From Alphaproteobacteria bacterium (GTDB lineage: Bacteria; Pseudomonadota; Alphaproteobacteria; UBA2966), in the NCBI GenBank assembly GCA_964291395.2, contig OZ219856.1:960001-1024000 (forward strand): a stretch of 64,000 bases of DNA, given 5' to 3'. The notes beneath the pieces were generated by a model that made no database searches, was not told the DNA's origin, and saw only the letters and a list, made by a program, of their open reading frames with translations. Shown here piece after piece: positions 12,384 to 64,000 of the stretch. Made by a program: the position numbers and the translations under genes. Position 1 is the first letter of the stretch; the number at the start of each line of letters is the position of its first letter.

Positions 12384-13145
12384 TCAGACCCGCCGCTTCA
12401 CCGACCAGCGAGGCATTAAGCGCTCGATCGTCAATTCGATGCCGCGGTCCAGGACGATGCTGAGGATGCCCAACCCGAATATGCCGATGAAGATCAGCGT
12501 GGGGTCGTAGTTCTGGCGGCCGAGGATGATGAGGTAGCCGAACCCGTTCGCCGCGCCCAGCATCTCCGCGGCGACCACGACCATCACTCCGAGCCCTGTC
12601 GCGGTCCGGACGCCCGCCAGGATGGCGGGGAATGACGACGGAATCACGACCCGGAAGAACGCCGAGACCCCCAGGACACCAAGTGTGTTTGCCGCCTTGA
12701 TACGCAGGTAAGGAACTTGCGCGACGCCCTGCCTTGCGCTCAGCGCGAGCACGTACACGGCGAGGTAGAAGACCAGCGAATAGCGGGCGAGTTCCGTTAC
12801 CCCGAACCAGAGCAGGGCGAACGGGATAAGGGCGATCGCCGGCGTGGAGTTCGCCATGCGCAGGTAGGGATCGAACCACGCGTTGACGTCGCGTGAGGCG
12901 CCCATGGCGCAGCCCAGTACGGCGCCAACCGGTATTCCCACCCCCAGTCCGACCAGGAGACGTTGAAGCGTCGCCCCGAGATGTACGTAGATCTCGCCCG
13001 TTTCGGACATACGGGCGAGGCCCCGCATGACGTCCATCGGCTCCGGGAACAGCAACGGTGTCCCGATGAATGACGCCGCGACCTGCCACAGGATGAAGAA
13101 CAGCAGGATGCCGTAGAGCGGGCCGAACCTGCCGGCTTGAGTCAC
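12384..13145 (-). CDS. ABC transporter permease (NitT/TauT/SsuC type)
   Basis: TLQRLLVG, LLWFG..E, AANTLG, VAAEM.GA.NGFGYLI. Confidence 0.9.
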   Translation of the reverse strand: MTQAGRFGPLYGILLFFILWQVAASFIGTPLLFPEPMDVMRGLARMSETGEIYVHLGATLQRLLVGLGVGIPVGAVLGCAMGASRDVNAWFDPYLRMANSTPAIALIPFALLWFGVTELARYSLVFYLAVYVLALSARQGVAQVPYLRIKAANTLGVLGVSAFFRVVIPSSFPAILAGVRTATGLGVMVVVAAEMLGAANGFGYLIILGRQNYDPTLIFIGIFGLGILSIVLDRGIELTIERLMPRWSVKRRV

Positions 13146-13936
13146 TGTGCCGTCTCCGCTCTTACGTCACCCGCGTCATGCACGTGCCCGATCAGCGATT
13201 CGATGTGGCGGTACGCAGCGATGAACTCCGCATCCGCGGGGTCGCGCTCGTCGGGCAACTCCGGGCGGAACGTGTCGAGGATACGGGCTTCCGGGCCCGA
13301 CGAGAGCACCGTCACGTCCGTGGCCAGGATCAGGGCTTCCGTGATGTCGTGGGTCACGAAGATGACGGTCTTGTGCGTGCGCTCCCACAGGTCCTTCAAT
13401 TCGTATTGCATGCGCCGGCGGGTGATGGCGTCGAGCGCCGCGAAGGGCTCGTCCATGATCAGCACGTGCGGGTCCATGACCAGGCCGCGTGCGATCTGGG
13501 CCCGTTGCTTCATGCCTCCCGACAACTCGGAGGGAAATTTGTGGGTGTCGTTGCCAAGGCCGACGAGTTCCAGGGCCTCCATCGCCTGGGTGCGGCGTTC
13601 GTTCTTGTTGCGCACGAAGTTCTTCAGCCCGAACTCGGCGTTCTCCAGGACGGTCAGCCAGGGGAAAAGCGCATTGCCGATGTCCTGGAAGATGACCACC
13701 CGGTCCGGGCCCGGACCGTGAATTGGGGAGTCGTCGAAGGCGATACGGCCGTCCGTCGGCGGTTCGAACCCGGCGATCAGATCGACCAGCGTGCTCTTCC
13801 CCGAGCCGCTTGGCCCGAGGATACACATGAAGGCACCCCGATCGACCGTCAGGTCGATGTCCGAAAGGACGACCGGGCCGCGCGAGAACTGCTTGTACAG
13901 TCCCGTGACCTTCAGCCGTTTCCAGTCGTTCTCCAT
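13142..13936 (-). CDS. ABC transporter ATP-binding protein (TauB/SsuB type)
   Basis: GPSGSGKST, LFPWLTV.EN, LSGGMKQR, MDEPFAALD, FVTHD. Confidence 0.93.
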   Translation of the reverse strand: MENDWKRLKVTGLYKQFSRGPVVLSDIDLTVDRGAFMCILGPSGSGKSTLVDLIAGFEPPTDGRIAFDDSPIHGPGPDRVVIFQDIGNALFPWLTVLENAEFGLKNFVRNKNERRTQAMEALELVGLGNDTHKFPSELSGGMKQRAQIARGLVMDPHVLIMDEPFAALDAITRRRMQYELKDLWERTHKTVIFVTHDITEALILATDVTVLSSGPEARILDTFRPELPDERDPADAEFIAAYRHIESLIGHVHDAGDVRAETAQ

Positions 13937-13992
13937 GGGACAGGTTCGACCCGCCGCCGCGACCGGCGGCGGGTCGTCACCGTGCCGCTGAC

Positions 13993-14955
13993 CTACATGC
14001 CCCTTACGAGGGTCGGGTCAAGCTTCTTGATATGCGACCAGTCGGTTGCCGTATCCCAGTCGACAGGACCCTTCAGAATGCCGAGCTTCATCAGGAACTG
14101 CTCGATATTGCGCAACTGGGTGCGGAAGGCCTCGTCGCTCACCAGGTCCCACTTCTGGCCCCTCACGGTGTGCTCGACCTCGTTCGGCGGCAGCTTGGTG
14201 AATTCCGCGATCGCGTCTATTCCCTCTTTCGGGCTGTTGGTCAGCAGATCGGAGCCCTTCTTGACGGCCCGCATGAACGCTTCCATCTCGTCGGAGGGTG
14301 CCGACTCGAGATACTTCCGCGACGCCAGCATGCCGCAGTAAAGCGAATAACCCATGTCGCCGGTGGCGGCGAGGATCTTGAACTTGTCGCTGAGGCCGTG
14401 GATCTTCAGGTCGAAGGGCTTCCACAACGAGATGGCGAAGACGTCCCCTTTGACCAATGCCGGGACCTGATCGAACGGCGCCAGGTGGACCATCTCGACG
14501 TCATCCACAGAGAGCCCGCCCGACTGCATATACTTGTCCAGCATGAACTCGGACGCGGACTTGCGAAACAAACCGATCTTCTTGCCTTTGAAGTCGGCCG
14601 GTCCCGTCACGTCCTTGGGGCCCATCACGAAGACCATGTGATTGTTGTCGGAGAACTGCGTGACGATCACGGCGTCACCGCCGGCGGCCATCATGATCAT
14701 GGGCTGGTCGCAGGTGACGAGGAACTGCGCGCCACCCGAGCGGAAAGCCTCCGAGGCGGCGGCACCGGCCTGGAATGTCTTTACCGTGACGTCGAGCCCT
14801 TCTTCCTCGAAGTACCCTTTGACGTAGGCCACGAACGGCGGCGCGAACACCGGGCTGACACCCGAGAAAATATTGATCTTGGTAGCTGCCGATGACGAAA
14901 CCGCGGCAAGCGCCATGCCCGCCGCCGCAATCAATGCGAGTGCAAAACGGTTCAT
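13993..14955 (-). CDS. ABC substrate-binding protein (NMT1/THI5, TauA/SsuA-like)
   Basis: Signal peptide MNRFALALIAAAG..AA; KGYFEEEGLDV; DFKGKKIG; SD GGGAGG. Confidence 0.88.
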   Translation of the reverse strand: MNRFALALIAAAGMALAAVSSSAATKINIFSGVSPVFAPPFVAYVKGYFEEEGLDVTVKTFQAGAAASEAFRSGGAQFLVTCDQPMIMMAAGGDAVIVTQFSDNNHMVFVMGPKDVTGPADFKGKKIGLFRKSASEFMLDKYMQSGGLSVDDVEMVHLAPFDQVPALVKGDVFAISLWKPFDLKIHGLSDKFKILAATGDMGYSLYCGMLASRKYLESAPSDEMEAFMRAVKKGSDLLTNSPKEGIDAIAEFTKLPPNEVEHTVRGQKWDLVSDEAFRTQLRNIEQFLMKLGILKGPVDWDTATDWSHIKKLDPTLVRGM

Positions 14956-15214
14956 TGTTGGCTTCCTCCCGTCGCTGAATCTTGAGACCAATCGAGACAA
15001 CGCGGTCCTGTCGGCCCGAAGGCCGGGCCCATCAGCGCTCTGCGCACCGAGTCGCTTGGAGCCGGCCTTGGAATCTATGTCAATACTCTTCGCATCACAA
15101 CGCAGCGCATGGTGGGTGGCCGCACCGCGCATCCGGGACGCTCGGTTGCTCGGGCGACGCTCAGGTAACAGCGCTCGCCGTGGCGCTGCCGATCGAGGCG
15201 CGTTGCGATCGGTT

Positions 15215-15530
15215 CATCTGGCACCGGTCAGCCAATTGCTGTGCGTCGGGTGCGTCGTGATGACGCTTGCGGAAAGCGGTGATGTTGTCTTGCAGTGGCC
15301 GATAGTAGTTTTCCCACCATGCGGACGCGGGGAGCGGAAAGTGCCGTACTGCCTCGTAGCCGCACGCCTCCACGGCTTCCAGGAGAGCCGAGGTGCCGCG
15401 GATAGCCGGGCACTCCCGGTTCCAGAACGCTGCGCATGCGGCGGGCGGCTCAGACTTCCGCCAGCACACCTCAGTCAGGGCGACATGACCATTGGGTCGC
15501 AGCAAGCGGCGCCAAGCCTCGCGCGGTTCG
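15215..15530 (-). pseudogene. C-terminal fragment of a class I SAM-dependent methyltransferase
   Basis: AWRRLLRPNGHVALTEVCW..FWN.ECP..GYEAVRHFPLPASAWWENYY.PL; no N-terminal SAM-binding motif. Confidence 0.65.
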
Positions 15531-15532
15531 GG

Positions 15533-16039
15533 TCAGACCACCGGTTCCAGCGGGTCGCGGTGGACCGTGGTCATGTCCTGACCCTCGATCCGCAACAGAC
15601 GGCTCAGCCCCTCGCACTGCGGCGAGTGGATATCGCCTTCGTTGTAGACCTTGGCATCGCCCGGACCGAGCGTGTAGGTCCGCTCCACCTCAACCTTTCC
15701 GGGTTCGCCGTCCGACGGTTCCCGCAGGAGCCGCCAGTCCGTCATCTCCGTGCTCCCTGCCGCCTGACCGTAGATGGCCCAGGCCGGCCCGTGATGGTGA
15801 GGATTCCCGTCGATCCCTTCCGGGTAGGTGTGCGCGACGATGCAGAAACCGAGTTCCTCATCCCGATAAAGGACATTGCGTTCGGAGTCCCGGCCGATCC
15901 CGAAAAGCGCGCGCAGGAACTCGCCGTCCGCCAGGACACGTTCCAGCATCCCGCGGATCTTCTCGCGGCCCTCCGGTCCGGGTTCCGCAGTCAGCGCGGC
16001 CTTGCAGTCGGCGGCAAGCGATTCGAGCGTGTACGGCAT
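15533..16039 (-). CDS. cupin-fold metal-binding protein (cysteine dioxygenase-like)
   Basis: PHHHGP.WAIYGQ..G and GDIHSP three-His pattern; SD AGGAGG. Confidence 0.65.
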   Translation of the reverse strand: MPYTLESLAADCKAALTAEPGPEGREKIRGMLERVLADGEFLRALFGIGRDSERNVLYRDEELGFCIVAHTYPEGIDGNPHHHGPAWAIYGQAAGSTEMTDWRLLREPSDGEPGKVEVERTYTLGPGDAKVYNEGDIHSPQCEGLSRLLRIEGQDMTTVHRDPLEPVV

Positions 16040-16156
16040 CGGTTTCCTCCTTCGTCCTCCAGTAATGCTACCGCCAATCCACCTGACTGCCATGCCGTGA
16101 AGGACGCAGGCCAAGGAGAGTCACGGCACGGGCGGCCGAGGCCACGCGGACGAGCC

Positions 16157-16591
16157 TCAAACCGACGCCGTGTGCGGCAGCTGCCGCATGGCTGCGTCGA
16201 ACGTGTATACGCCCGTCGACGCCTCGCCTGCGTCCGACGCGGTTCGCTGCGCCTTGAACACGATCAACGCGTCAGCGAAACCGGCGCCCTTCGTCGACCC
16301 GGCGACGCCCTCTGCCGTCGTTCCCTTGTACGCCTGCAAAGCATGCCAGACGACCTGGTCGTCCTCGAAACGGACATTCGGCTCGCTGAACAGCCGTTCG
16401 AGGACCGCCACCAGGTCGGCCTTTGCCAGCCGGTACTTTCGGCCGCAAAGAGTCCACACGGTTTCCGCCAGAACGACATCCGTGATCAGCACGGGCTCGG
16501 CGGCATCGAAGAGGTCATCCGCGCGCGTCGCCCGGGCCTCGTCGTCGTGCAGCACATACCGCAGCAGGACGTTGGTGTCGGCGGCGATCAA
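16157..16591 (-). CDS. vapC: VapC-family PIN domain toxin
   Basis: DTNVLLR, VLAETVW, FADALI, YTFD. Confidence 0.9.
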   Translation of the reverse strand: MIAADTNVLLRYVLHDDEARATRADDLFDAAEPVLITDVVLAETVWTLCGRKYRLAKADLVAVLERLFSEPNVRFEDDQVVWHALQAYKGTTAEGVAGSTKGAGFADALIVFKAQRTASDAGEASTGVYTFDAAMRQLPHTASV

Positions 16592-16815
16592 GATTGCGGC
16601 TCGTCCAGGGCGCTCTCCAGGGACTCCTCGTCCGTGACGCCGGCATCCCCGGGCACGTGAGCAAGAAACCCCCTGGCCGCACCGGCGGTCTTCCGCACGA
16701 TGGTGATGCGTCCGTCGGCGACGAAGCTGCGGACCTCGTCCCCCGGGCCGATCCCGACCTCTTTACACTGATCTACAGGGAGCGTGATCTGGCGCTTGGC
16801 GCTCACTCGCGGCAT
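16588..16815 (-). CDS. AbrB/MazE/SpoVT family antitoxin
   Basis: VSAKRQITLP...GIGPGDEV; 4-nt overlap with vapC. Confidence 0.9.
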   Translation of the reverse strand: MPRVSAKRQITLPVDQCKEVGIGPGDEVRSFVADGRITIVRKTAGAARGFLAHVPGDAGVTDEESLESALDEPQS

Positions 16816-16860
16816 GGGACATCCCCCGGCAAGGACCGATTGCGAAAGACAATAGCAAAT

Positions 16861-16887
16861 TCTTTACTAATGGCTCACAGGTAAAGA
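16861..16887. promoter_or_regulatory. putative antitoxin operator
   Basis: Inverted repeat TCTTTAC-N13-GTAAAGA in the AT-rich stretch upstream of the antitoxin. Confidence 0.5.
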
Positions 16888-16921
16888 GATTAGCGGCAGG
16901 TCCGCGCCCGGCTGAAGGGCG

Positions 16922-18184
16922 TCATTCGATCTCGATATCGACGGGGACGATCCCGTCGAAGTGCTTGCGCTGGTAGTTCCAGTCTGTCACGGGCTGCTTG
17001 CGGCCCTTCTCGTCGGTCCCACGGGCCATCAGGACGTAGTGGCCCCGCTCGTCGGCCTCCCACGGATATGACCAGCGGCGCCAGAGGTAGCGGTCGGCAT
17101 GGTCCTCGACGTGCGCGTCGTTCCAAGTCTCACCGCCGTCGGTGGATACCTCGACACGCACCATCTTGCCCTCGCCGCTCCAGGCCAGGCCCCGGATCGG
17201 GTACCTGCCCTTCGGCAAGGGCGATTCCTCGTCGCGCGGCTCGGTGATCACCGTCTTGACGCCAAGCGCCGTCATCATCTCCTTGTTCGGGTCGTCCGGA
17301 CCCTTGCCTGACACGAAGTAGTGGGTCTGGTGGTAACAGTCCGGCATGTGGCCCATGACCTCGATCTTGTGGATCCACTTCACCCACCAGTTGCCGGCCC
17401 AGCCGGGCACCACCATGCGCACCGGCGCACCGTGCACGTGGGTCAGGTATTCGCCGTTGTGGGCCCAGGCCAATATGGTGTCCGAGTCCATGGCCTTCTC
17501 AATGGGCAGACCCTTGTCGTAGTTGATGACGCCGGGATCGAAGACCTCGAAATCGGAGCGGCCGGCCGAGCGGTAGACCAGCGAGGAATCCGGGCGCCCC
17601 CGATCGAAGCCCTCGACACGGACGGCCACCGCACTGTCCTTGACGCCAGCCCGCGTCAGCACCTCGCTCAGCCGCGTGCCCGTCCACTCGCCGCCGGAGA
17701 CGATACACGTCGAAGGAACGAGCTGCCTCGCCTCGTCCAGATCGATTTCCCCCTTGGCCACCAATTCTCGCCAATTGACGTCTTCGCCTTCATTCGAGAC
17801 CTGGCGGGACGGCTTCGGCGTGTTCCCGCCTGTTCCACGAGATTCCAGATAGTCCCAAAACTCGGTGTCGTCGCCGGCGCATTCGGTCACCGCGCGGACC
17901 GTGTGACCGGGCAGCAGCCGGAGATCGTTGAGCGTGTAGGTCTTGGGATTTTCGACTTCGCCGAAAATTTCGAACGTGTAGTCCTCCGGATGCACCGGTT
18001 CGGGCACCTGGAGCTGCGCCACGATGTAATACGCGTCCGTCGGAGTGATCAGCCCCTCGAGCTCGAAGTACGGCGAGCGGGCATGGATGATGCGGCCTTC
18101 CTGGTCCTTGCCGGAGACAAACCGGTACCGCCTGCGGTCCGGCCAGCCCATAACCCAATCGCCTTCGATCTCCCGTCGCGGCAT
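16922..18184 (-). CDS. sulfite oxidase-family molybdopterin oxidoreductase (divergent active site)
   Basis: VTECAG Mo-ligand Cys, GEWTG, NGEYL..HGAPVRMVVPGW.G..VKW, GLAWSG, VEVS.DGG.TW, W.RW. Confidence 0.85.
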   Translation of the reverse strand: MPRREIEGDWVMGWPDRRRYRFVSGKDQEGRIIHARSPYFELEGLITPTDAYYIVAQLQVPEPVHPEDYTFEIFGEVENPKTYTLNDLRLLPGHTVRAVTECAGDDTEFWDYLESRGTGGNTPKPSRQVSNEGEDVNWRELVAKGEIDLDEARQLVPSTCIVSGGEWTGTRLSEVLTRAGVKDSAVAVRVEGFDRGRPDSSLVYRSAGRSDFEVFDPGVINYDKGLPIEKAMDSDTILAWAHNGEYLTHVHGAPVRMVVPGWAGNWWVKWIHKIEVMGHMPDCYHQTHYFVSGKGPDDPNKEMMTALGVKTVITEPRDEESPLPKGRYPIRGLAWSGEGKMVRVEVSTDGGETWNDAHVEDHADRYLWRRWSYPWEADERGHYVLMARGTDEKGRKQPVTDWNYQRKHFDGIVPVDIEIE

Positions 18185-18346
18185 GTTCTTCCCTTCCGAT
18201 CGACTGCAAAAAGGATACGCCACATAGTGCTGGCCGGCATCAACCCCCCATGGGTGGTTCCGTGTCGCAAGAGACGTCGGAGCGCCAGCCGACGCGTCCC
18301 GCGAACCACAATCCTGAGAAAACGAGCGTTATCACTGCAGTGATGA

Positions 18347-18868
18347 TTGCGACAGCGCTCCCGTCCAGCACACTTGGCAGTAGGGTTTCGGAGCGACGAA
18401 GCGGCGATCATGAGTGCGTCCGTGATGTTTCTTGTCGCCGCTGCAGCCTTGACCGGATGGCTCGTCACCGTAGCTCAATTGCCGTTTCTGCTCGTCGACG
18501 TGCTCGAGCAGTTGATTGAAACGCCGCGTCTCTTGATGCTGGTGATCGTCGTTTTGGTTCTCGTCATCGGCATGGTGATGGATTTCGTTCCGACGGTTTT
18601 GATCCTTACGCCGGTCCTCATGCCGTTGATCAAGATCGCCGGTATCGACCCGGTCTATTTTGGCGTCGTGTTCGTGATGTCGACCGCCGTGGGCCTCCTG
18701 ACGCCACCAGTGGGGGTTGTTCTGAATGTCGCCTGCGGAATCGGTGGCGTGTCCATGGAACAGGGGAGCAGGGGCGTAGCTCCATTCGTTCTTATGCAGA
18801 TAACGTTGTTGCTACTCCTGGTTGCCGCGCCACAGCTCGTGCTCACCCCGTTAAATTGGCTGCGTTAA
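18347..18868 (+). pseudogene. C-terminal fragment of a TRAP transporter large permease (DctM)
   Basis: GMVMD..TP.LMP..GIDPVYFG..GLLTPPVG; only about 170 codons; no DctP/DctQ nearby. Confidence 0.8.
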
Positions 18869-31490: not shown

Positions 31491-34079
31491 TCAGCGATGT
31501 TCCGGATGATCCGTCGAGTGCGAGTGGGGATGGTCGAAGCCCATCTCGTGCATCCGGTTGTGCAGACGCCGATAGGCGCTCTGGAGCAGAAGCCGCATTT
31601 CGGCCGTGCGCTTCGACTCCGCGCGCGTGCCGATGGTATCGAGGTACGCCATCGCCCCCTCGATCTGCTCGAGAATCGTCAGGGCGTCGGCCGCGGCGAA
31701 AAACGGTGAGCCCTCCACCTCGACCATTACGGGCGTCGAGTGGGCGGCGATCATCTCCGGTTTGTCCTCGTATTTCGCCCGCACGAGAAGCGCGAGCCAT
31801 GCGCTCCGGTCGATGTGGACCGACCAGTATCCGCCGTCCGCATCGGCTTTCACGGATCGGGATTCGCGGATCTCACCGTTGACGATCAACTCCACGCGCG
31901 TCATGGGAACCGTCGCGCTCGCCACGGTCCAAGTCACGTCCACAGTGCCGCCATCCGCGGTCAAGAGCATGCGCCGGCCCATTTCCCGGCCGTCCACGTC
32001 GAACTCCAGCAGGGGGCCGTAGGTCACGAAGGTGCGCGCGTCGCGAACCGCCTCCATCCAGGCGTCGTAGGTGAACGGCGTATCGTCCGGCAGTCGCGCG
32101 TAGGTGCGGATCGTCCCGACGGCCCAGGTGGCGCCCATCTTGTCGGTGCCGCCCACGGCGGGGACGAGATAGCCGTTGTTGAGATAGCGATACCAGTCGG
32201 ACAGCGAATAAGGGTCGATGCCATGGTAGAAATCGTCCTGCGAGCACATCTCCACCGCGTCGGCGCGTTCCAGAACGAGCGTCGCGGCGTTTTCCAGCCT
32301 CGGGTCGGGGAAATGGGGCAGGACCACCAGCCCTCCCTGGTCCCGGCACTGCTTCGCCCATTCGCTGATCAGAATCTCGACGGGATCTCCCAGGGCGGAT
32401 TCGTCGGGCCCCCCGGTGCACAGCGGCGAGATCATGTTCCCGCGGTAGCCGATCAGCGAGATGTGCCCCAGGACGTGCTGGCGGTTCTCCGTGCCGACGC
32501 GGACGAGGTGCTCACCGTCACCGCCCGCTTCCCGGGTTCCGAAGGTGGATTTTCCGTCGAAGTCGCCCACGTTGGTCATCAGTTCACCCCACTGGCTGGC
32601 GAGGAGATTGACGACGTTGACGCCTTCCGCGGCGCCTTCGAGCATGGCCGTGCCCGGTGACAGGAAGTGAACGTGGGTGTCGGCCGTTACCCAGCCCCGC
32701 CTACGCCAATCCAGGACCCTGTCCAACTCGATGGTGATGGTACGGGTGTCGCCGGTCACCTGGACGGTCTTGCGGATCGGTGCGATCTCGAACCCTTTGG
32801 TGACCTCCAGAAAGACGTTGCCGAGGGGCAGATTGATCGAAATCTCTCCCGGAATGTAAACGCAGGTGTGCTCGCCGTGACAGAGGTCGGCACCGTAATC
32901 CTCGAACCAGGCTGGATTCGGCATTCGATGCCGGTCGAGCGGCGGGAGATACTCGCCGTTGGCGCCATGCACGTGGAGCTTCACGGGAACGGGGATCGTC
33001 GACCCCGTCTCCACCACCCGGAGCTGGACACGTTGGGTTGCGGGCGGGACCCGCCGGATAACCGGATCGGCCGTCGCCGTGGCGTCCTCGAGTCGCGCGA
33101 CGGGAATGCGCTCACCTCCCGAGAGATGGAACCGTGCCTCGTCGTGGGCCGTGAACTCCACGATCACTTCGTCGCTCGCGCGCGTGGGCTGCCGGTTCTG
33201 GCGCGTCTCGGCCCATTTGTCGTTCGGGTAGATCAGCCGCGGCGTCGCGGAGATGACCTGTCCGAGATCGAGCTGGACATGGTCGAGCAGGTCATGCTCG
33301 TCGAATTCGTAAGTCTGGACGACGCTCCGGGGTAGCTTGACGACCGCCTTCCGCCGAGTTCCCCACCGAAGCGGCATGCCCTGCGCGTGTCCGGCGGAAA
33401 CCGCGGAGACGATCACCGTTCCGCTCTTGGGCTCGAAGCCCAGTCCGATCACGGCCTTCTCCGGGTGTGGGTTTTCGAACGCCCACAAGTAGTTGGTCCA
33501 CGGTCCCCGGCCCGGATTGCTCCGCGCGGTCATAGCCCGCTTCTGGCGGCGGCCCCACCGTATCGCCATGGGCTCTTGCGACGGGGGGCGGATCGGGCGA
33601 GGCTTTCCTGCGGGGACCGACCGGGTGCAGTTCTCGCCCCAACGAAAATCGAACGTGCCGATCTCGTGCCGGCGCCGAACGGCGGCCCGTTCGGTAGACC
33701 CGTCACCGTAGAAGAAGACATAATCCGCCGCGTGTTCGCCCAGCTTGCCAATCCCATGCATCGGCGAGACGAAGCCGTGCGCGTTGGCCTCGTCGGGTCT
33801 GGTGTCTGACGTGTGCAGAAACACGAACCAGGCGGCCTTCGTCGGAGAGATGTCCACTCTTGCGAACTCGTCGCGAACGGGCAGTACCTTGCGGATTCGA
33901 AACGGGATGCCCCAGGCGACGCTGTCACCGCCGTGGGCGTGCTCGATCTCCGCGAGCATTTCGGGTGAGACGTGGCGGTCGTCGAGGTCACGGAGATCGA
34001 CCTCTCCGTCAAAATCGATCGGCGAGAAAAGTGAGGAAGCGGGACCATCCTGGATGACGTTCACGGTCAAGACCTCCAT
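31491..34079 (-). CDS. CehA/McbA family metallohydrolase (PHP-like; carbamate hydrolase family)
   Basis: GWVTADTHVH, AEGVNVVNLLASQWG, GTENRQH.LGH, PHFP.P, WY.YLN.G..V.GTD, TYGP. Confidence 0.75.
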   Translation of the reverse strand: MEVLTVNVIQDGPASSLFSPIDFDGEVDLRDLDDRHVSPEMLAEIEHAHGGDSVAWGIPFRIRKVLPVRDEFARVDISPTKAAWFVFLHTSDTRPDEANAHGFVSPMHGIGKLGEHAADYVFFYGDGSTERAAVRRRHEIGTFDFRWGENCTRSVPAGKPRPIRPPSQEPMAIRWGRRQKRAMTARSNPGRGPWTNYLWAFENPHPEKAVIGLGFEPKSGTVIVSAVSAGHAQGMPLRWGTRRKAVVKLPRSVVQTYEFDEHDLLDHVQLDLGQVISATPRLIYPNDKWAETRQNRQPTRASDEVIVEFTAHDEARFHLSGGERIPVARLEDATATADPVIRRVPPATQRVQLRVVETGSTIPVPVKLHVHGANGEYLPPLDRHRMPNPAWFEDYGADLCHGEHTCVYIPGEISINLPLGNVFLEVTKGFEIAPIRKTVQVTGDTRTITIELDRVLDWRRRGWVTADTHVHFLSPGTAMLEGAAEGVNVVNLLASQWGELMTNVGDFDGKSTFGTREAGGDGEHLVRVGTENRQHVLGHISLIGYRGNMISPLCTGGPDESALGDPVEILISEWAKQCRDQGGLVVLPHFPDPRLENAATLVLERADAVEMCSQDDFYHGIDPYSLSDWYRYLNNGYLVPAVGGTDKMGATWAVGTIRTYARLPDDTPFTYDAWMEAVRDARTFVTYGPLLEFDVDGREMGRRMLLTADGGTVDVTWTVASATVPMTRVELIVNGEIRESRSVKADADGGYWSVHIDRSAWLALLVRAKYEDKPEMIAAHSTPVMVEVEGSPFFAAADALTILEQIEGAMAYLDTIGTRAESKRTAEMRLLLQSAYRRLHNRMHEMGFDHPHSHSTDHPEHR

Positions 34080-34129
34080 CGCCGGTTTGCCTTCGGATGC
34101 CTGGTGCACCGGCCCTCGTAGTGTAGGCT

Positions 34130-56948: not shown

Positions 56949-57638
56949 TCAGCCGGCGCCGACGATCCTCGGCAGCCCCTCGAGCGTCTCTATCTCGGCG
57001 TGGGGCGGGTCGGGGATCCGCTCGCGTGTCTGGCCGAAGCGATTGACCCAGATGACGCGGTATCCGAAGGCGGATGCGGCGGCGGCATCCCAGGCGTTGG
57101 AAGACTGAAACGACATCCGTCCGGCCGGCAGGCCGAGCCGGTCCTCTCCCATCCGGTAGACGCTCGGGTGAGGCTTGAATACGCCGACCTCCTCGACCGA
57201 GAGGACCGCGTCGAGAAGATCCGCAAGATCCGCGCTGCTGACCGCGGCCTCGAGCATGTCGGGCGCGCCATTCGACAGGATGGCCGTCTTCATTCCCGCC
57301 GATTTCAGTTGCGCGAGAACCCCCTTCGCCTCGGGATAGGCGTCGAGCGCGAGATAGAGGTCCATGAGACGGTCGCGCAGCGCGTCGTCGTCGAGGCCGA
57401 GGCTGTCCATCGCGTAGTCCAGCGCGTCTCCCGTAACCCGCCAGAAATCGACGTGCCGGCCCATGACGCTGCGCAGCCAGGTGTACTGGAGCTGCTTCAG
57501 CCGCCAGGTCTCGGCCAGAGGCTGCCACTTGTCCCCGAGTTCCGACCGGCAATGCCGGGCGGCCGCGTCGACGTCGAACAGCGTCCCGTAGGCGTCGAAC
57601 ACGCAGGCACCGATGTCGTCGAATCCTTGAGCTGTCAT
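56949..57638 (-). CDS. haloacid dehalogenase type II
   Basis: FDAYGTLFD, WR.KQLQY.W, LSNG, FKP.P.VY, SSNAWD. Confidence 0.92.
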   Translation of the reverse strand: MTAQGFDDIGACVFDAYGTLFDVDAAARHCRSELGDKWQPLAETWRLKQLQYTWLRSVMGRHVDFWRVTGDALDYAMDSLGLDDDALRDRLMDLYLALDAYPEAKGVLAQLKSAGMKTAILSNGAPDMLEAAVSSADLADLLDAVLSVEEVGVFKPHPSVYRMGEDRLGLPAGRMSFQSSNAWDAAAASAFGYRVIWVNRFGQTRERIPDPPHAEIETLEGLPRIVGAG

Positions 57639-57788
57639 CGCGGTCCCTTAGACGAATAGAGGGGTTTCAGGCAAGCCGGAGTCCATTCGGAGGAGTGGCG
57701 ATCGATCGTGAAGCGCGAGGCGCGCGCCGCGAGGGGAGCGGGCCACGTTCGGGGTCGCGAACCTCGATTCACGTCCGACGTCCCCGAA

Positions 57789-57816
57789 TTGACATCGATC
57801 TCGCCCCGCGTATAGT
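57789..57816 (+). promoter_or_regulatory. sigma70-type promoter of rpsD
   Basis: TTGACA-N16-TATAGT, 57 nt upstream of the ATG. Confidence 0.7.
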
Positions 57817-57873
57817 ACGCGCCCGATCCGGCGCCCCGGCGCCGGTTTTCCAGTTTCACGCGTGGAATTGCCG

Positions 57874-58491
57874 ATGAGCAAGCGTCAATCAGCGAAGTAC
57901 AAGCTCGACCGCCGCATGGGAGAGAACGTCTGGGGGCGACCCAAGAGCCCGTCCAACCGGCGTTCCTACGGCCCCGGGCAGCACGGCCAGGCTCGCCGGC
58001 GCAAGCTGAGTGACTTCGGGATTCAGTTGAAGGCGAAGCAGAAGCTCAAGGGCTACTACGGCAACATTACCGAGAAGCAGTTCCGCAACACCTATGACCG
58101 GGCGGTCAAGAGCAAGGGCGACACGACGGAGAACCTGATCGGTCTCCTCGAATGCCGGCTCGATGCCGTGGTCTACCGCATGAAGTTCGTGCCGACGGTG
58201 TTCGCGTCGCGGCAGTTCATCAGCCACGGCCACGTCACGGTCAACGGACGGCGCGTGACCATCCCGAGCTACCGGGTCCGGGAAGGCGACGTCGTCGAGG
58301 TGCGCGAGAAGTCCAAGAACATGGCGCTCGTGCTCGAGTCGCTGGAATCGGCGGAGCGGGACGTTCCCGACTACATCGAGGTCGACCACGCGAAGCTGCG
58401 GGGTACGTTCCTTCGCGTGCCGTCCTTCGCCGAGGTGCCCTATCCCGTGCACATGGAGCCGCACCTCGTGATCGAGTACTACAGCCGCTGA
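57874..58491 (+). CDS. rpsD: 30S ribosomal protein S4
   Basis: [56 protein letters not shown]. Confidence 0.98.
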
Positions 58492-58590
58492 CCGCCCTTG
58501 CTGCCGTCGTTGCTCCGCTTGCGCTCGCGCCGGCGGGCCGGACGGCGATCATTCCGACATCCCGTGTTCCGTGGTCGAACCACGCGCCTC

Positions 58591-59715
58591 CTACATGTGG
58601 ATGCGGTCGCCTTTGGGATCGAAGAACGGGATTTCGACCACCGTGGCCTTGAGCGGTTCGGGCTCGGTCCTGATGACAAGCGCCGTGCCCACCCCGGCGT
58701 GCTCGGCGGGGACGTAGCCGATGCCGATGGTCTTGTCGAGGGTCGGGCTGAAGCCCGCGAAGGTCGCCTTGCCGCATTCCCGGCCGTCGATCTCGATGGG
58801 AGTGCCGGGCGCCGCGGCGGCGGAGCCCTCGATGATCTCGAAACCGACGAGTTTCCGGCTCACGCCTTGTTGCTTGATACGCAGGAGCGCATCGCGCCCG
58901 ACGAAATCTTCCTTGTCGAGCTTGACCGCCTTGTCGAGGCATGCCTCGAACGGATTGGTGTTCTCGTCGATGTCGCGCGTGTAGATGTGGTAGACCTTCT
59001 CGAGACGGAATACGCCGACCGTCTTGTTGCCGCAGAGCTGAAGGCCGTCGTCCTTGCCGGCCTCCACGATGGCGTCGTACATCGTGTAGGCGTAGCCTGG
59101 ATCGTAGATGATCTCGTAGCCGAGCTCGCCGGTGACGCCGAGGCGCGCGACGATGCAGTCGATGCCGGCGACCTTCGTCTCGACGAAGCGGAAATAGGGC
59201 AGCGCTTCGTTCGAGATGTCGGCGTCGGTGATCTTCTGTAGGATGTCGCGGGATTTGGGCCCCTGAATCTCGATGATCGTGGTGCCGCTGGTCAGGTCCT
59301 CGATCTCGACGTCCATGTCTCCCACATGTCCGCGCACCCATCCCGGCGTCTTGCCGACGTTGAAGGCGGCGGCCGTCAGCAGGTAGTGGTCGGGCGCCAG
59401 GCAGAGCACGACGAGATCGTCGACGATCCCCCCGTCCTCGTTGAGCAGGCTCGAATAGAAGCAACGCCCCGGTTCGGGTTTGATGTCGTTGGCGCAGACC
59501 TTCTGCACGGCATCGTGCGCTTCCGGGCCCTTGAGATGGAGTTCGCCCATCTGGTGACCGTCGAAGAGCACGGCGGCCGAACGGCACGCCTTCACCTCAT
59601 CCTCCACGGAGGTGAAGGTCTCCGGCATCTCCCAGCCGGCGAAGTCGAAAAAGCCGTTGGCTCCGTGAGCAACGTGTTGGCCGTAGTGCGGCGAGCGTTT
59701 CAGGATCTTGGTCAT
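58591..59715 (-). CDS. stand-alone aminomethyltransferase (GcvT-like, folate-binding) protein
   Basis: FAGWEMP, LFD..QMG, LNEDGGIVDD, IQGPKS, GVTGELGYEI, RLEK, DFVGR.AL, SPTL...G.GY, PFFDP. Confidence 0.9.
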   Translation of the reverse strand: MTKILKRSPHYGQHVAHGANGFFDFAGWEMPETFTSVEDEVKACRSAAVLFDGHQMGELHLKGPEAHDAVQKVCANDIKPEPGRCFYSSLLNEDGGIVDDLVVLCLAPDHYLLTAAAFNVGKTPGWVRGHVGDMDVEIEDLTSGTTIIEIQGPKSRDILQKITDADISNEALPYFRFVETKVAGIDCIVARLGVTGELGYEIIYDPGYAYTMYDAIVEAGKDDGLQLCGNKTVGVFRLEKVYHIYTRDIDENTNPFEACLDKAVKLDKEDFVGRDALLRIKQQGVSRKLVGFEIIEGSAAAAPGTPIEIDGRECGKATFAGFSPTLDKTIGIGYVPAEHAGVGTALVIRTEPEPLKATVVEIPFFDPKGDRIHM

Positions 59716-59743
59716 CGGTTTGTCCTCGGACTCGATAAGCTCT

Positions 59744-61078
59744 CTAGTCGTCGCGGCGCGGGATGTTGGATCCCTTGTGCCACTTCTCGAAGTGGTTCTT
59801 GTGCGTGTGGATGTAGGCGCCTTCCTTGAAATACTGATCATAGAACTCCGTGTCGAGGTGGTGAGCCTGGATGAAGTAGAGCAGGTGCATGGTGTCGTTG
59901 TGAGCGGGGAACTTGCCGTACTCCTCGTAGATGTACCGGCAGATATCCTTGACGCACTCGACCCCTTCATCGGAAATGCCGGGCACCGCCTTTTCGAATT
60001 CCTCGTTGGAGACGGTGTGCGGCAGGGTCATGCCCCGGCGCTCCCAGTCGTCGAGTTTCTCGCCCATGCCGGCCACAGCCGCTTCCACCGCCGCGTCCAT
60101 ATCCTTGTAGTAAGGCGGGCAAAACCCCTCGAAGTAGCCGTCGAGGCCGACCGGGTTGGGGAACGGATCGTCCTTGGGCGTGACGAAACGGAAGCCCAGG
60201 CCCTTGCAGATCGGCGTGCCGCCCATGACCACGAGCGGCGTGAAGCCGCCATGCATCCAGCCCCCGATTCCCGTGGCGGCCATGGCGAGCTGCATGAGCT
60301 GCCCCATCATGGCGCCCTCGGCGCAGAGCCAGCTCACGATGATCTTCTCGAGACGGCCGAGCGGAAGAACCTTGTTGCGGTCGAGCAGGCCCTTGTCGGC
60401 CCACTTCTCGCAGCCCGCCGGCTTCATGCCCCGGCGCTCGTCACAGATATAGTAGCCGCCGCCCTTGACGTAGCGCGCGCCGCCCCTGGTGTCGCACATG
60501 TTGACCGTCAGGCGGATGAGATCCTGGCTGATGTCCGTAACCGGCATGAACAGGGTGGTGCCGGGCCGGTTGGTAACCCAGAGATTGTGGGCGAAGAGAC
60601 CGGGTTCCGCCTGAGGCAGATCGAACCGCCCGTCGGACAGCTTGACGGTGTGGTCCCGGTAGAAGTTCCAGACTTTGTCCCGATCTTCGACGGTTTCGTA
60701 CTCCTTCATCTTGCTCATCTTCGCCTTGTCGGCCTGATAAAGGTAAAGCCCGTCGTCGTTGGTGAAGAACAGCAACGTCCTGTGGGCGCCGACCGCGCTC
60801 GGATGCGTGCGCCCGACCGACTTCACCATGCCGCCCTGGGTGTCGCCCTCGCAAAGAATGGCACCCGTCGTGCCGCAGGCCGCCGCCACGAGGACTGCGG
60901 TTTCCTCCTCGGAGAGCGGATAGGGCTCGTAAGGCGATTTGTGGACGAAGGGGCCGTGGGTGAGCTCCATGCCGAAGCCGAATCGCCGCGAGCGCCGGCT
61001 GGTGAGGGCCTCGAACAGAGGAAAGTCCCAGACCTCCTCGAACTCCGGCAAAACGCTGAATTTGGGATCGTCAGTCAT
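59744..61078 (-). CDS. conserved-looking hypothetical protein, 444 aa, probable nitroreductase-like FMN-binding fold
   Basis: LFEALTSRRSRRF (RRSxRxF), PLSEEE..L..AA, RTHPSA, and EGAMMGQLMQLAMAATGIGGWMHGG (the QN..LAA..LGLG-type helix); SD GGAGG. Confidence 0.6.
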   Translation of the reverse strand: MTDDPKFSVLPEFEEVWDFPLFEALTSRRSRRFGFGMELTHGPFVHKSPYEPYPLSEEETAVLVAAACGTTGAILCEGDTQGGMVKSVGRTHPSAVGAHRTLLFFTNDDGLYLYQADKAKMSKMKEYETVEDRDKVWNFYRDHTVKLSDGRFDLPQAEPGLFAHNLWVTNRPGTTLFMPVTDISQDLIRLTVNMCDTRGGARYVKGGGYYICDERRGMKPAGCEKWADKGLLDRNKVLPLGRLEKIIVSWLCAEGAMMGQLMQLAMAATGIGGWMHGGFTPLVVMGGTPICKGLGFRFVTPKDDPFPNPVGLDGYFEGFCPPYYKDMDAAVEAAVAGMGEKLDDWERRGMTLPHTVSNEEFEKAVPGISDEGVECVKDICRYIYEEYGKFPAHNDTMHLLYFIQAHHLDTEFYDQYFKEGAYIHTHKNHFEKWHKGSNIPRRDD

Positions 61079-61316
61079 TGCTTTCCTCCGTCTGGGGTTT
61101 CGGTTCACGGGCGGCGCGCCGGAAGATCAGCGTGACGATTCCGAAGAGGACGCCCGGCCTCAGCAGTTTTCCGAGAACGGTGAGGAGCTCGGGACCGGTG
61201 ATGTAGGTCCTGGCGTCCCACACCCCCATACGTCCGACCATGACGAGGTGGCGGCCTTCGATCTCGAACCCCTCTATCGAGATATCGAACTCACCGGCCA
61301 TCGACTTGATGATCAC
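61071..61316 (-). CDS. small hypothetical protein (81 aa)
   Basis: SD GAGGAG plus GTG; its stop overlaps the next ATG (ATGACTGA); beta-rich N-terminus, amphipathic/hydrophobic C-terminus. Confidence 0.7.
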   Translation of the reverse strand: MIIKSMAGEFDISIEGFEIEGRHLVMVGRMGVWDARTYITGPELLTVLGKLLRPGVLFGIVTLIFRRAAREPKPQTEESND

Positions 61317-61519
61317 GCTGCGACTCCTCTCTGAGTTGTCGCGGGTCCCGGGGACCCGCTTGCCTCGACTCGATACGGCACCGCCGCCGCCGCCGGGCCG
61401 CGGTGCGGCGAGAGTTTAGGGGCAAGACCGTCCCGAGGCCAAGCCGTCCGTCGCTGGCCGTCGCCGGAGAGACCCGATAGGATGCCGCCGCGACGCAACG
61501 GCCGGCGAAGGGCGCCCGC

Positions 61520-62623
61520 TTGGATTACAGTACGTTCATGATGCCTCTCCATGACATGGAGCGGGATTATACGAAGGTCCTCAAGGAAGACCGCGAGGCG
61601 GTCATTCTCGCGGACGAGCTCGGGTTCAAAGAGGCCTATATCGGCGAACACGTCTCGGACCGGACGGAGCCGATCACGTCATGCACGCTTTTCCTCGCGA
61701 CACTCATGGATGCCACGCAGAACATCAAGTTGGGCTCCGGGACCGTCAACTTGCCCAACAGCCATCCGGCCCAGGTGGCCGCCCAGGTCGCGATGCTCGA
61801 TCACCTGCTCGAGGGTCGGTTCATGTTCGGCATCGGACCCGGGGGGCTGCGTTCGGACATGGAGGTGTTTGAGAACATTGACCGGGACCGCGCCGCCATG
61901 TTCATCGAGTCGATCGAGCACATTCTCGCCATTTGGGCGGGGGACCCGCCCTATAACCTGAAAGGCGAGTTCTGGAACATCAGCACGGAACGCACACTGG
62001 CGCCCGAGGTGGGGCAGGGAATCTTCGTCAAACCATACCAGCAGCCGCATCCGCCCATCGTCGTCACGACGATCGCTCCGAATTCCAAGGGACTGATGAA
62101 GACGGCGGAACGCGGTTGGCTGCCGCTGTCGTCGAGCTTTGTTCAGCCCGAGATCGTCGCTACGCATTGGCCGATGTATGCCCGGGGTCGGCGGAACGTC
62201 GGTGCCGAGCCGAGCGTCTCCGAATGGCGAGTCGGCAAGAGTATTTTCGTCGCTGACGACGAGGTGACGGCGCGGAGCTACGGCAAGGGCCTGGACGGTC
62301 CCTACGCGTATTACTTCAAGACGATCATGGGAAAGCTCGTCAGCGCGGGCCGTATCGGCACCTTCAAGGCCGATCGATCGATGCCTGACGAGGACGTCAC
62401 GCTGGAATGGGTCGTCGACTCGCTCGTCATCGCGGGCACCGTCAACAGCGTCGTCGACCAGATCCTGGCCTTCCGGGAAAGAACCGGAGATTTCGGGCAA
62501 CTGGTCTATTGCGGCCACGACTGGCTGGACGCCGATCTCGGCAAGCGCTCCATGCAGCTGTTCGCGGAAGAGGTCATGCCGCGGGTCAATGCCGCCATCC
62601 GCGAGTCCGCTGCGGCGGAGTAG
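61520..62623 (+). CDS. LLM class flavin-dependent oxidoreductase
   Basis: FMMP.H, ADELGF.EA..GEH, IKLG.G..NLP..HP, KPYQQPHPPI, LFAEEVMP. Confidence 0.88.
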   Translation: MDYSTFMMPLHDMERDYTKVLKEDREAVILADELGFKEAYIGEHVSDRTEPITSCTLFLATLMDATQNIKLGSGTVNLPNSHPAQVAAQVAMLDHLLEGRFMFGIGPGGLRSDMEVFENIDRDRAAMFIESIEHILAIWAGDPPYNLKGEFWNISTERTLAPEVGQGIFVKPYQQPHPPIVVTTIAPNSKGLMKTAERGWLPLSSSFVQPEIVATHWPMYARGRRNVGAEPSVSEWRVGKSIFVADDEVTARSYGKGLDGPYAYYFKTIMGKLVSAGRIGTFKADRSMPDEDVTLEWVVDSLVIAGTVNSVVDQILAFRERTGDFGQLVYCGHDWLDADLGKRSMQLFAEEVMPRVNAAIRESAAAE

Positions 62624-62756: not shown

Positions 62757-64000
62757 TCATGCGTCCAGGCTTTCGAACGCATCGGCCGCCGGTTTCAGCA
62801 CCGTCCGCTCGTCTCCGATGCGGCGGGTGAAACCGGATCTATCAAAGAATTCCAGTACTTCGATCGTCAAGTTCCTTCCCAGCGCCGTCGCATCTCGGAA
62901 CATGCGCGCCGTGAAGCGCCGGTTGGGTGAGCCCGCGGCCACCCGCTCGGCGGTTCCCGCCAATTGCCGCACCATGGCCGGAGTCATGAAGCGATTTCGG
63001 GAGACCTGGACAGCGAGTCCCTGGCGGCCCAACCTGACGAGGAATTGCTCCAGGGTCCGGGGGGGCATTTCCAAGCTGGTCGCCAGGTCGGGAACCGACG
63101 GCGGGCGTCCTTGATCCGCTTCGAGCAGCGGCGAGATCCTGTCCCAGAGGGCCGCGTCTTTGGGTGGAAGGGCGGTCCGGTGGCCCGCCTGCCGGAGGCG
63201 GCCCGCTTCGCGGACGATCGTGCCGGACGTCACGAGGTCTTCGACGGCCGCCTCGAACAGCGCCCGGCCGAAATCCGAGCCCGCTGCCGCCCGCAGTTGG
63301 TCGAGAGGGATTCCTTGGCTGTCCGACGCGCCGGCGTGGTGGCCGGCGATGGCCTTCGCGATGCCGGATTGGGCCTGCTCCCAGCTCTCCCGTGCGACCG
63401 CGGTTCCCGCGCCGGCGGTCTTCGCGACGACGGTGCCCGCGCGGTGGGCTGCATCGGCGACATCTGATTTGGACAGGTTCCGCGCCACCGCGAAGCGGTC
63501 CAGGTCGATGCCTTGCGACGACGCGGCGCACATTCCCCGGAGGGCCTTCTCCGGATCGTCCTCGTCGGTCGCCTTGATCAGAGCCAAGCGTCCGGGGGTG
63601 CGGCGCCCGCGCCCCGGCGCGAAGGGATCGATCACGCGGCCGCCGCCGACCGTCCGGCGCGCCGACTGGTCCCGGATCACGAAACGATCTCCGAAAGCGA
63701 CGCTGGTCATGGAGTCGAGGACGATCTGCACCAGCCCGGCCTCGCCCGGCCGGAGGGAGCGGTCTTCGAGCAGGGCGACCCGGCCGGTCAGCGCCGCCGC
63801 TCCCACGTGGACATGCACGGGTGTCCAATGGCGGAGGGGGCGAGTCTCGCTCAAGAGGACCTTCAACCGCGCGTCGAACCGGCGAGTCGGAGAATCGAGC
63901 GCCGGAGCGACGAGCCAATCGCCACGCGCCACGGAGTCCCGCCCAAGTCCACGCCCGGTCAAATTGAGCGCGCAGCGCTGTCCCGCGGCACCCGAGGCGG
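62757..64000 (-). CDS. selB: selenocysteine-specific elongation factor, C-terminal part (runs off the window)
   Basis: GQRCALNL, RGDW, HW..VH.H.G, GDRFVIRD.SA..TVGGG.V.DP, winged-helix FRD...LGR..I.VLEFFD..GFT.R.GD.R. Confidence 0.93.
   Translation of the reverse strand, partial: ASGAAGQRCALNLTGRGLGRDSVARGDWLVAPALDSPTRRFDARLKVLLSETRPLRHWTPVHVHVGAAALTGRVALLEDRSLRPGEAGLVQIVLDSMTSVAFGDRFVIRDQSARRTVGGGRVIDPFAPGRGRRTPGRLALIKATDEDDPEKALRGMCAASSQGIDLDRFAVARNLSKSDVADAAHRAGTVVAKTAGAGTAVARESWEQAQSGIAKAIAGHHAGASDSQGIPLDQLRAAAGSDFGRALFEAAVEDLVTSGTIVREAGRLRQAGHRTALPPKDAALWDRISPLLEADQGRPPSVPDLATSLEMPPRTLEQFLVRLGRQGLAVQVSRNRFMTPAMVRQLAGTAERVAAGSPNRRFTARMFRDATALGRNLTIEVLEFFDRSGFTRRIGDERTVLKPAADAFESLDA

Follow-up and report, generated by a model that had tools for sequence, protein, structure and literature searches.

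The 64,000-nucleotide stretch analysed here (hereafter the window; contig OZ219856.1 of an alphaproteobacterium of the GTDB lineage UBA2966, positions 960,001 to 1,024,000) carries on its minus strand a unit of three co-oriented genes, arranged head to tail at positions 58591-61316 and encoding proteins of 81, 444 and 374 amino acids. The trio appears to form a single catabolic module in which a flavoprotein of the nitroreductase (NTR) fold and a dedicated GcvT-like folate enzyme would release a one-carbon (C1) unit from an imported small molecule, a reading to which we assign a probability of roughly one half. Underlying it are the observed gene structure, the folds of the proteins and the conserved linkage of the small, NTR-like and GcvT-like genes.

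Structure of the gene unit

The three genes are tightly packed. The stop of the small gene and the start of the NTR-like gene have the 8 nucleotides ATGACTGA in common, the gap between the NTR-like and the GcvT-like gene is 28 nucleotides long (59716-59743), and a purine-rich ribosome-binding site precedes all three starts (Table 1). The overlap, the short gap and the separate ribosome-binding sites together indicate co-translation, and the coordinates confirm the layout proposed in a first-pass annotation, which had been made from the DNA letters alone. A mechanical list of open reading frames (ORFs) gives lengths of 454 and 459 amino acids, with both frames beginning upstream of the point where homology starts. 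The GC content at third codon positions, 0.86 in the NTR-like gene and 0.79 in the small gene, is typical of coding sequence in this DNA, and conserved homologues of each of the three proteins occur in other phyla.

The NTR-like protein

The nitroreductase fold of the 444-residue protein is predicted from its AlphaFold2 model, which was built on a 34-sequence alignment (pLDDT 83.7, pTM 0.87). Foldseek returned three matches at E ≤ 0.001, all of them nitroreductases, and VIA-align against representatives gave 45 chains with Z ≥ 8, the best 50 rows being NTR-fold proteins throughout. At the top stand two uncharacterised nitroreductases, 8cqs_A (Z 14.1, root-mean-square deviation 2.7, 180 residues aligned) and 3hj9_B (Z 13.7), followed by ThcOx (12.5), BmdC (11.5), Ava_2154 (10.8), AlbA (10.4) and McbC (9.9); of these, ThcOx, BmdC, AlbA and McbC are flavin-dependent dehydrogenases or oxidases. 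The first-pass annotation had suspected such a fold from the motifs RRSRRF, PSA and QLMQLAMAATGIGG, which are indeed present at residues 28-33, 93-95 and 260-273, respectively. It had also remarked that the protein is about twice the usual length; the extra length was traced to ~250 residues of insertions and a C-terminal tail on a single NTR core that spans residues ~12-410, and a tandem duplication was ruled out as its source. Subgroups of the superfamily are reported to differ by extensions from a common FMN-binding core (PMC8668982).

Conservation within the family is concentrated in a few elements. Among 34 relatives, R28, R29, R31, R32 and F33 are invariant and S30 is nearly so, and in relatives at 26-54% identity R32 remains invariant, with R29 and R31 at least 90% conserved. 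We take RRSRRF to be the superfamily motif for the phosphate of flavin mononucleotide (FMN), of the form R-x-S-x-R/K as in NfsB and NfsA. A GxGGW strand, GIGGW in the window's protein, is conserved across the family, and so is a histidine-rich C-terminal motif (Q404, H407, D409, Y413, H426, H429, W433, H434), which is kept even at 26-54% identity and could provide a metal site or catalytic residues. A metal cluster on C320, C375 and C380 was considered and rejected, as these cysteines are not conserved in distant relatives.

The protein appears to belong to no characterised family, and NCBIfam returned no family for it at E ≤ 1. A word-indexed search found 467 relatives, of which the 120 listed had no precomputed Pfam domain and the few named were hypothetical proteins. 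A profile search of 1.84 billion representatives (clusters at 50% identity) gave at least 2000 matches at E ≤ 0.001, of which 1041 reached E ≤ 1e-10 and 231 reached E ≤ 1e-30, and the ESM Atlas contributed unnamed clusters only, one of them with PF00881 on 16% of its members. When 24 family representatives were scanned with Pfam, three had sub-threshold PF00881 matches (17.8-18.9 bits) and 21 had none. In one representative, P0190 (863 amino acids), the NTR-like domain is preceded in the same chain by the catalytic domain of an MpaB/Lcp-type oxygenase (PF09995, 95 bits); the other 20 had no Pfam match. The 444-residue protein represents a large family without a name, a Pfam model or a studied member. 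The best matches in the searches of PDB sequences with this protein, with its 34-sequence profile and with the small-protein profile, ZipA (E 0.09) and Rubisco (E 0.14), were taken as chance.

The same data bear on the possibility that the NTR-like protein is not a redox enzyme, being instead a flavin-free scaffold or binding protein, or one that uses another cofactor or a metal at the histidine-rich motif; the link to the GcvT-like enzyme would then reflect, for example, a hydrolytic or lyase-type release of the C1 unit. Such a role would be compatible with the lack of any profile match above a family cut-off and with the alignment of just ~180 of the 444 residues to the NTR core, the conserved H407, D409, H429 and H434 would suit a metal site, and Tdm offers the precedent of a metal-dependent, redox-neutral partner of a GcvT-type domain. 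However, the FMN-phosphate-type motif and the GxGGW strand are conserved family-wide, and the fold neighbours are all flavoproteins, so that a non-redox role is considered improbable.

The GcvT-like protein

The 374-residue protein is covered over its full length by GCV_T (243.6 bits) and GCV_T_C (67.1 bits) and has no other domain. It narrowly misses the equivalog cut-off of the glycine-cleavage T-protein (TIGR00528, 233.5 against 235.85; PRK00389, 273.7 against 300), and it falls below the NCBIfam cut-offs for DmdA (159.3 against 410), LigM (65.6 against 580) and DesA (65.8 against 800), as well as far under those for SoxA and Tdm. Its best solved relative is the Thermotoga maritima GcvT (1woo, 243.7 bits, residues 5-365 aligned to 1-356). 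Next come the Bacillus subtilis GcvT (217.7 bits), dimethylglycine oxidase (DMGO, 1pj5, 149), dimethylglycine dehydrogenase (DMGDH, 5l46, 142) and Tdm (9q5a, 141), and lower still the Escherichia coli GcvT (130), DmdA (118) and SoxA (1vrq, 111). By these scores the protein looks far closer to the methylene-level enzymes (T-protein, DMGO, DMGDH, Tdm and SoxA) than to the methyl-level DmdA and LigM.

Twenty-one orthologues that adjoin NTR-like genes in two phyla have 98 invariant positions, and all 21 carry the signature FDGH[QA]MGE in place of the FDVSHMGE of the T. maritima protein; the linked GcvT-like proteins therefore appear to form a distinct subfamily. The aspartate pair D99 and D100 of the DDLVV motif is likewise invariant, a pair that has a catalytic role in T-protein structures. 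No gcvH, gcvP or flavin adenine dinucleotide (FAD) amine oxidase gene lies within 5 kb of the trio, in agreement with the first-pass annotation, and neither gcvH nor gcvP is found in the last 10 kb of the window.

The window's genome has 16 GCV_T matches in all, and its GCV_H matches, at C1:129273-129629 and C1:1208125-1208484, are ~190 kb or more from the trio. A 516-residue frame elsewhere in the same genome, outside the window (C1:1208077-1209627; L079:278-1828), contains GCV_T, GCV_T_C and GCV_H with the DVSHMGE core kept, and appears to join the T- and H-proteins of glycine cleavage in a natural fusion. The trio's GcvT-like protein is 33% identical to it.

Conservation of the linkage

A genome scan with one genome per species yielded 246 stretches with a relative of the 444-residue protein, the best 80 of which resolved into 78 loci, each taken with flanks of up to 6 kb. 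Two groups of loci recur below: the window's clade, with at least 60% identity to the 444-residue protein (24 loci), and a sister clade at ~55% identity (27 loci). A GcvT-like gene adjoins the NTR-like gene in 26 of the 78 loci. Within the window's clade (24 loci), 22 have it immediately after the NTR-like gene, and the remaining two, L028 and L072, stop at a contig edge; in four Dehalococcoidia loci (~50% identity) the order is reversed and the GcvT-like gene sits immediately upstream. Identity between the two phyla amounts to 45-52% for the NTR-like and 48-56% for the GcvT-like proteins. On quick maximum-likelihood trees (IQ-TREE, quick search, 73 rows, without six of the 78 loci in which the ORF caller had missed or shortened the anchor gene), the adjacency label changes twice. 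In L006 (7356-8470) and L010 (7371-8310) the GcvT-like match falls in two pieces in different frames, which could reflect a frameshift or a sequencing error in the assembly; in L011 the match spans residues 1-351.

In 400 other sampled Alphaproteobacteria genomes, no relative of the GcvT-like protein exceeded 39% identity and only four genomes had NTR-like relatives, all distant (33-38% identity). Given this scarcity, the NTR-like and GcvT-like genes appear to travel as a pair and to constitute a rarely found accessory module. The adjacency in the window might instead be fortuitous, the GcvT-like gene being merely one of the many T-protein paralogues of a genome with 16 GCV_T matches, and the window's locus does lack the transporter and regulator genes of its clade. 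Yet every one of the 26 loci that carry this GcvT subfamily has it next to an NTR-like gene, in two phyla and two gene orders, and the 400 other genomes contain no orthologue; chance is thus a very unlikely explanation.

The small gene was found in 52 of the 78 loci with a profile of 28 homologues, and in 49 of these it is directly upstream of the NTR-like gene, often with its stop overlapping the NTR-like start. The exceptions are L014, where it lies 5 kb upstream, L041, where it is directly downstream, and L078, where it is on the opposite strand ~1 kb downstream. In the 26 loci without it the NTR-like relatives are all at most 52% identical, and the profile found no match in five whole genomes with such relatives (the window's own genome, used as a control, was matched). 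The first-pass annotation had stated that it would fall with a different fold, a characterised family or a lack of linkage in homologues; what emerged is an NTR fold, no characterised family, and the two sets of linked loci counted above.

Neither Pfam (E ≤ 1) nor NCBIfam has a family for the 81-residue protein. The alignment of the 28 homologues shows S5, A7, G8, F10, G28, M30, G31, V32, W33, A35 and T37 to be invariant, which corresponds to a motif S-x-AGEF ... G-x-MGVW-x-A-x-T within a conserved N-terminal β sheet, followed by two partly hydrophobic helices. In the model (pLDDT 85.6) the strands comprise residues 2-5, 8-20, 23-30 and 33-39 and the helices residues 41-51 and 54-69. The best PDB matches of the fold, COMM domains (Z 4.0-4.2) and Pur-alpha (Z 3.6), are too weak to name it. 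The conservation and the placement of its gene suggest that the 81-residue protein is a real, conserved partner of the 444-residue protein. A complex prediction with two 444-residue chains and one 81-residue chain, run with alignments, gave a score of 0.02 and a mark of 0.32, which weighs neither way on binding. A 207-residue protein with a small-protein-like stretch and a DctM Pfam domain came up in a search for fusions, itself weak evidence, and is taken as a probable gene-calling merger.

Sister operons and transporter context

The sister clade, with members in Roseobacteraceae, Rhodospirillales, Chelatococcus and Zhengella, offers a clue to the product of the flavoprotein. Its cultured carriers include Ruegeria marina, Shimia aestuarii, Chelatococcus asaccharovorans and Zhengella mangrovi, whereas none of the 78 loci comes from a cultured member of the window's clade. 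It keeps the small and NTR-like genes, and in 24 of its 27 loci an aldehyde dehydrogenase gene then follows in the position of the GcvT-like gene. A SnoaL-like gene lies ahead of the small gene in 24 of the 27 loci and in none of the 24 loci of the window's clade. TauE/SafE is present in 20 of the 27, and divergently oriented genes encode the TRAP components DctM (25/27) and DctP (17/27) and a TetR regulator (22/27). A GcvT-like enzyme, which handles C1 units at the formaldehyde level, and an aldehyde dehydrogenase share one slot, and the simplest reading that the swap suggests is therefore that the flavoprotein yields an aldehyde-level carbon. This fits the idea of an aldehyde or formaldehyde equivalent already put forward in the first-pass annotation, and such an exchange between sister operon types is a rare and clean comparative clue to a product.

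Within the window's clade, a Crp-type regulator gene follows the GcvT-like gene in 17 of the 24 loci. An ABC importer of the NitT/TauT type is common, with a binding protein in 13 of the 24 loci, for example at L013:9567-10811; this protein matches the SsuA family weakly, and among solved structures it comes closest to the E. coli TauA (E 2.3e-8). In 8 of the 24 loci there is also a TauE/SafE protein, which belongs to another subfamily than that of the sister clade. Proteins of the TauE/SafE family are reported to export sulfite, sulfoacetate and 3-sulfolactate (PMC10413263). The combination of these exporters with TauA/SsuA-type ABC or TRAP importers hints at anionic, possibly sulfonated substrates, for example N-methylated or C1 sulfonates.

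The window itself contains an SsuA-family ABC transporter (11603-18223, minus strand; binding protein, ATPase and two permeases) ~40 kb from the trio, near a homologue of the SoxC/SorA-like molybdenum sulfite dehydrogenases that scores below the equivalog cut-offs. Its binding protein (13993-15132) was considered as the importer of the trio and set aside, being unrelated to that of the clade. A taurine pathway in the window was likewise discarded, as the thiamine pyrophosphate enzyme and the class-III aminotransferase score far below the Xsc and other equivalog cut-offs. A 173-residue fragment at 18347-18868 (plus strand) matches only the last third of TRAP DctM and is probably a gene remnant.

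A proposed mechanism and its alternatives

In the proposed mechanism, the translationally coupled 81- and 444-residue proteins would form a two-subunit flavoprotein on one much-extended nitroreductase fold, and the 374-residue protein would be a dedicated paralogue of the glycine-cleavage T-protein. First, the flavoprotein would take two electrons from a heteroatom-bonded carbon, here a methyl or methylene group, of a small imported compound, either by dehydrogenation next to nitrogen or sulfur or by elimination of an anion. The product would be a C1 unit at the iminium, thionium or hemiacetal level, i.e. a formaldehyde equivalent. Next, the GcvT-like enzyme would move this unit to tetrahydrofolate (THF) to give 5,10-methylene-THF, and the remainder of the substrate would leave as an amine, thiol or anion. 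In the sister clade, the oxidised carbon would be part of a longer chain and be handled as an ordinary aldehyde by the aldehyde dehydrogenase. FMN binding, the contact between the subunits, the direction of the redox reaction, the hand-off of the C1 unit and the nature of the substrate, whether an N-, S- or O-methyl compound, are thus all predictions of the model.

Several observations weigh against this reading. The nitroreductases that have been characterised mostly act as NAD(P)H-dependent reductases rather than as oxidases. At the level of the large protein, the PF00881 match is sub-threshold (12.3 bits, E 0.2, cut-off 23.5), and searches of PDB sequences with the protein and with a 34-sequence profile gave nothing significant. 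The small protein is absent within 6 kb in the four GcvT-linked Dehalococcoidia loci and was not found with this profile anywhere in two of the Dehalococcoidia genomes with the link, so that the GcvT link evidently does not depend on it. Searches for NTR-GcvT or small-NTR fusions, which are themselves weak evidence, turned up none. The correlations of the distance matrices (r 0.86 and 0.83) are confounded by shared ancestry, and the 27 most distant loci have no common neighbour theme besides a MocR-type regulator in six. Finally, the window and its closest relatives (L001-L005) have no regulator or importer nearby, there is no TauE near the trio in the window, and no orthologue of the binding protein typical of the clade is encoded in the window's own genome.

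The reductase bias of the superfamily also feeds an alternative in which the two enzymes catalyse consecutive steps: the GcvT-like enzyme would act first and alone, in a redox-neutral transfer of a methyl or aminomethyl group to THF, and the NTR-like enzyme would then use NAD(P)H to convert the demethylated product or a toxic by-product. Stand-alone enzymes of the GcvT family that work without an oxidase exist (DmdA, LigM/DesA), the window's protein is complete as a stand-alone protein, and the Dehalococcoidia carriers manage without the small protein. The scores of the GcvT-like protein, however, fall far short of DmdA (159 against 410) and LigM (66 against 580), whereas it nearly reaches the GcvT cut-off (233.5 against 235.85) and scores 140-149 bits against the DMGO, DMGDH and Tdm chains; moreover, the sister clade has in the same slot an aldehyde dehydrogenase and no transferase, which suggests an aldehyde-level product of the flavoprotein. 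Such a sequence of steps is regarded as unlikely.

Somewhat less likely again is an oxidation with elimination of an anion, in which the flavoprotein would cleave a C-S or C-N(O2) bond in the manner of nitroalkane oxidase, giving sulfite or nitrite, exported by TauE, and an aldehyde; in the window's clade the aldehyde would be formaldehyde, for example from methanesulfonate, trapped on THF by the GcvT-like enzyme. TauE/SafE exporters of two subfamilies do occur in both clades, with sulfite among the reported exports of the family, the window's clade has an importer of the nitrate/sulfonate/taurine type, and the conserved loci contain no further catabolic genes, as expected for a substrate consumed as C1 and an inorganic anion. 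The GcvT-type domain of Tdm is reported to take up formaldehyde made by its partner domain (PMC13619132). On the other side, 16 of the 24 loci in the window's clade have no TauE, nor does the window, and TauE proteins also export organic sulfonates, so that sulfite is not implied. In addition, an unactivated methyl sulfonate is a chemically hard target for hydride or carbanion chemistry, and the desulfonating flavoenzymes known to us are luciferase-like monooxygenases.

Comparison with known systems

The module proposed here, a flavoprotein with its own folate enzyme, has partial likenesses to several known systems. In gene layout, it resembles the cyclodipeptide oxidase AlbAB, which likewise pairs an NTR-fold flavoprotein with a small family-specific partner encoded by an overlapping gene, and the AlbA chain 8uc3_B matches the 444-residue model (Z 10.4, root-mean-square deviation 2.8, 158 residues aligned). 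AlbA is reported to act as a substrate dehydrogenase or oxidase and not as an NAD(P)H reductase, and AlbB to be a four-helix bundle of the family PF19585 (PMC11055893). The differences are nevertheless considerable. The small gene is upstream here, the large subunit has 444 residues against ~200, and no cyclodipeptide synthase gene is nearby, the neighbours in the window and the related loci being transport, regulator, GcvT, aldehyde dehydrogenase and TauE genes. The small-protein model, a four-stranded sheet with two helices and no Pfam match, also differs from the four-helix bundle, and the suggestion of the first-pass annotation that the 81-residue protein is a counterpart of AlbB holds for the gene layout only.

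In function, the closest parallels would be DMGO and DMGDH, the heterotetrameric sarcosine oxidase and Tdm, in which a GcvT-type folate domain stands beside the maker of a formaldehyde or iminium equivalent, as is proposed here. Their partner, in contrast, is an FAD amine-oxidase or a DUF1989-type metal domain in one chain or complex, while the trio has a separate NTR-fold partner, a stand-alone folate protein and no adjoining FAD oxidase gene. The T-protein proper (TIGR00528) is similar to the 374-residue protein end to end, as seen in the T. maritima and B. subtilis enzymes, and has the aspartate pair, but the latter protein lies under the equivalog cut-off, has the altered signature and lacks a gcvH/gcvP context. 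ThcOx, BmdC and McbC (azoline-type, SagB type) are among the best structural matches and are NTR-fold enzymes that oxidise their substrate next to a heteroatom; unlike them, the 444-residue protein has no NCBIfam sequence match, and no genes for ribosomally synthesised and post-translationally modified peptides or for nonribosomal peptide synthetases are nearby.

In its proposed function the module parallels the folate-linked demethylases and in its layout AlbAB, but it lacks defining features of each, and it is classed as a folate-linked C1-releasing system with an unprecedented partner scaffold. In the openly accessible literature no paper was found on the 444-residue family or on the pairing of NTR-like and GcvT-like proteins. 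To our knowledge, the folate-linked demethylases have an FAD amine-oxidase domain, a Rieske or metal partner, or no partner, and an NTR-fold partner with its own small subunit would, if true, add a further architecture. More tentatively, and with the odds against it, the trio may represent a new class of THF-linked C1-releasing system in which a two-subunit flavoprotein on an NTR scaffold and its own T-protein paralogue convert a methyl-heteroatom compound to methylene-THF and an anion or thiol. Candidate substrates would then be methylthio acids, methylmercaptopropionate among them, or sulfonates of the C1 or N-methyl kind.

Were this the case, the module would fill a gap in the C1/organosulfur cycle of sea and soil by providing the enzyme for a step without a known gene, and the wider family, which comprises >1000 clusters at 50% identity, would amount to a large and unexplored set of dehydrogenases acting on heteroatom-adjacent C-H bonds. 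The substrates, perhaps abundant methylated or sulfonated osmolytes, can be approached directly by experiment through the dedicated binding proteins of the related loci.

Surroundings of the locus

The trio is flanked by rpsD (convergent) on one side and by a gene for a luciferase-like monooxygenase (divergent) and then selB on the other; other neighbours encode a HAD hydrolase, a VTT-domain protein, an MFS transporter and an AraC regulator. The divergent monooxygenase (61520-62623) was rejected as a part of the module, as a close homologue (87-89% identity) occurs in only two of the 78 loci, L001 and L004.

The small gene is preceded by a GC-rich, hairpin-containing 5′ leader, which extends from the promoter-like element listed in Table 1 to 61317 (region 61317-61442, minus strand) and is kept in the window and in L002-L005. 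A simple sigma-70 scan of this upstream region found no site, and the fold of the leader alignment had a positive, i.e. penalising, covariation term, so that an RNA structure is not supported. Rfam gave no match in 57500-62000 of the window at E ≤ 1, and a riboswitch search of 11 related loci found tRNAs only.

Table 1 Genes of the unit and the candidate promoter element, with positions in the window
Feature	Position	Strand	Remarks
81-residue accessory protein gene (P0003)	61071..61316	-	GTG start; GAGGAG 7 nt 5′ of start
444-residue NTR-fold protein gene (P0001), putative FMN enzyme	59744..61078	-	ATG start; GGAGGA 5 nt 5′ of start
374-residue stand-alone GcvT-like folate enzyme gene (P0002)	58591..59715	-	GAGGA 7 nt 5′ of start
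Promoter-like element TTGGCC-N17-CTAAAC (tentative)	61414..61442	-	Upstream of small gene; conserved in the window and close relatives L002-L005

Further afield in the window, an insertion sequence-type integrase gene (rve, HTH_21) is located at 6328-7227 (plus strand), and an 872-residue ORF lies at 31491-34109 (minus strand), for which Pfam gave no match at E ≤ 1e-5 but in whose C-terminal half NCBIfam places a metallohydrolase domain of the CehA/McbA type (140 bits). The selB gene for the selenocysteine elongation factor, two genes from the trio, occupies 62757-63962 (minus strand) and runs to the window end, and in the close relative L004 a tRNA-Sec gene (L004:3699-3789) is found ~2 kb from that locus's copy of the trio.

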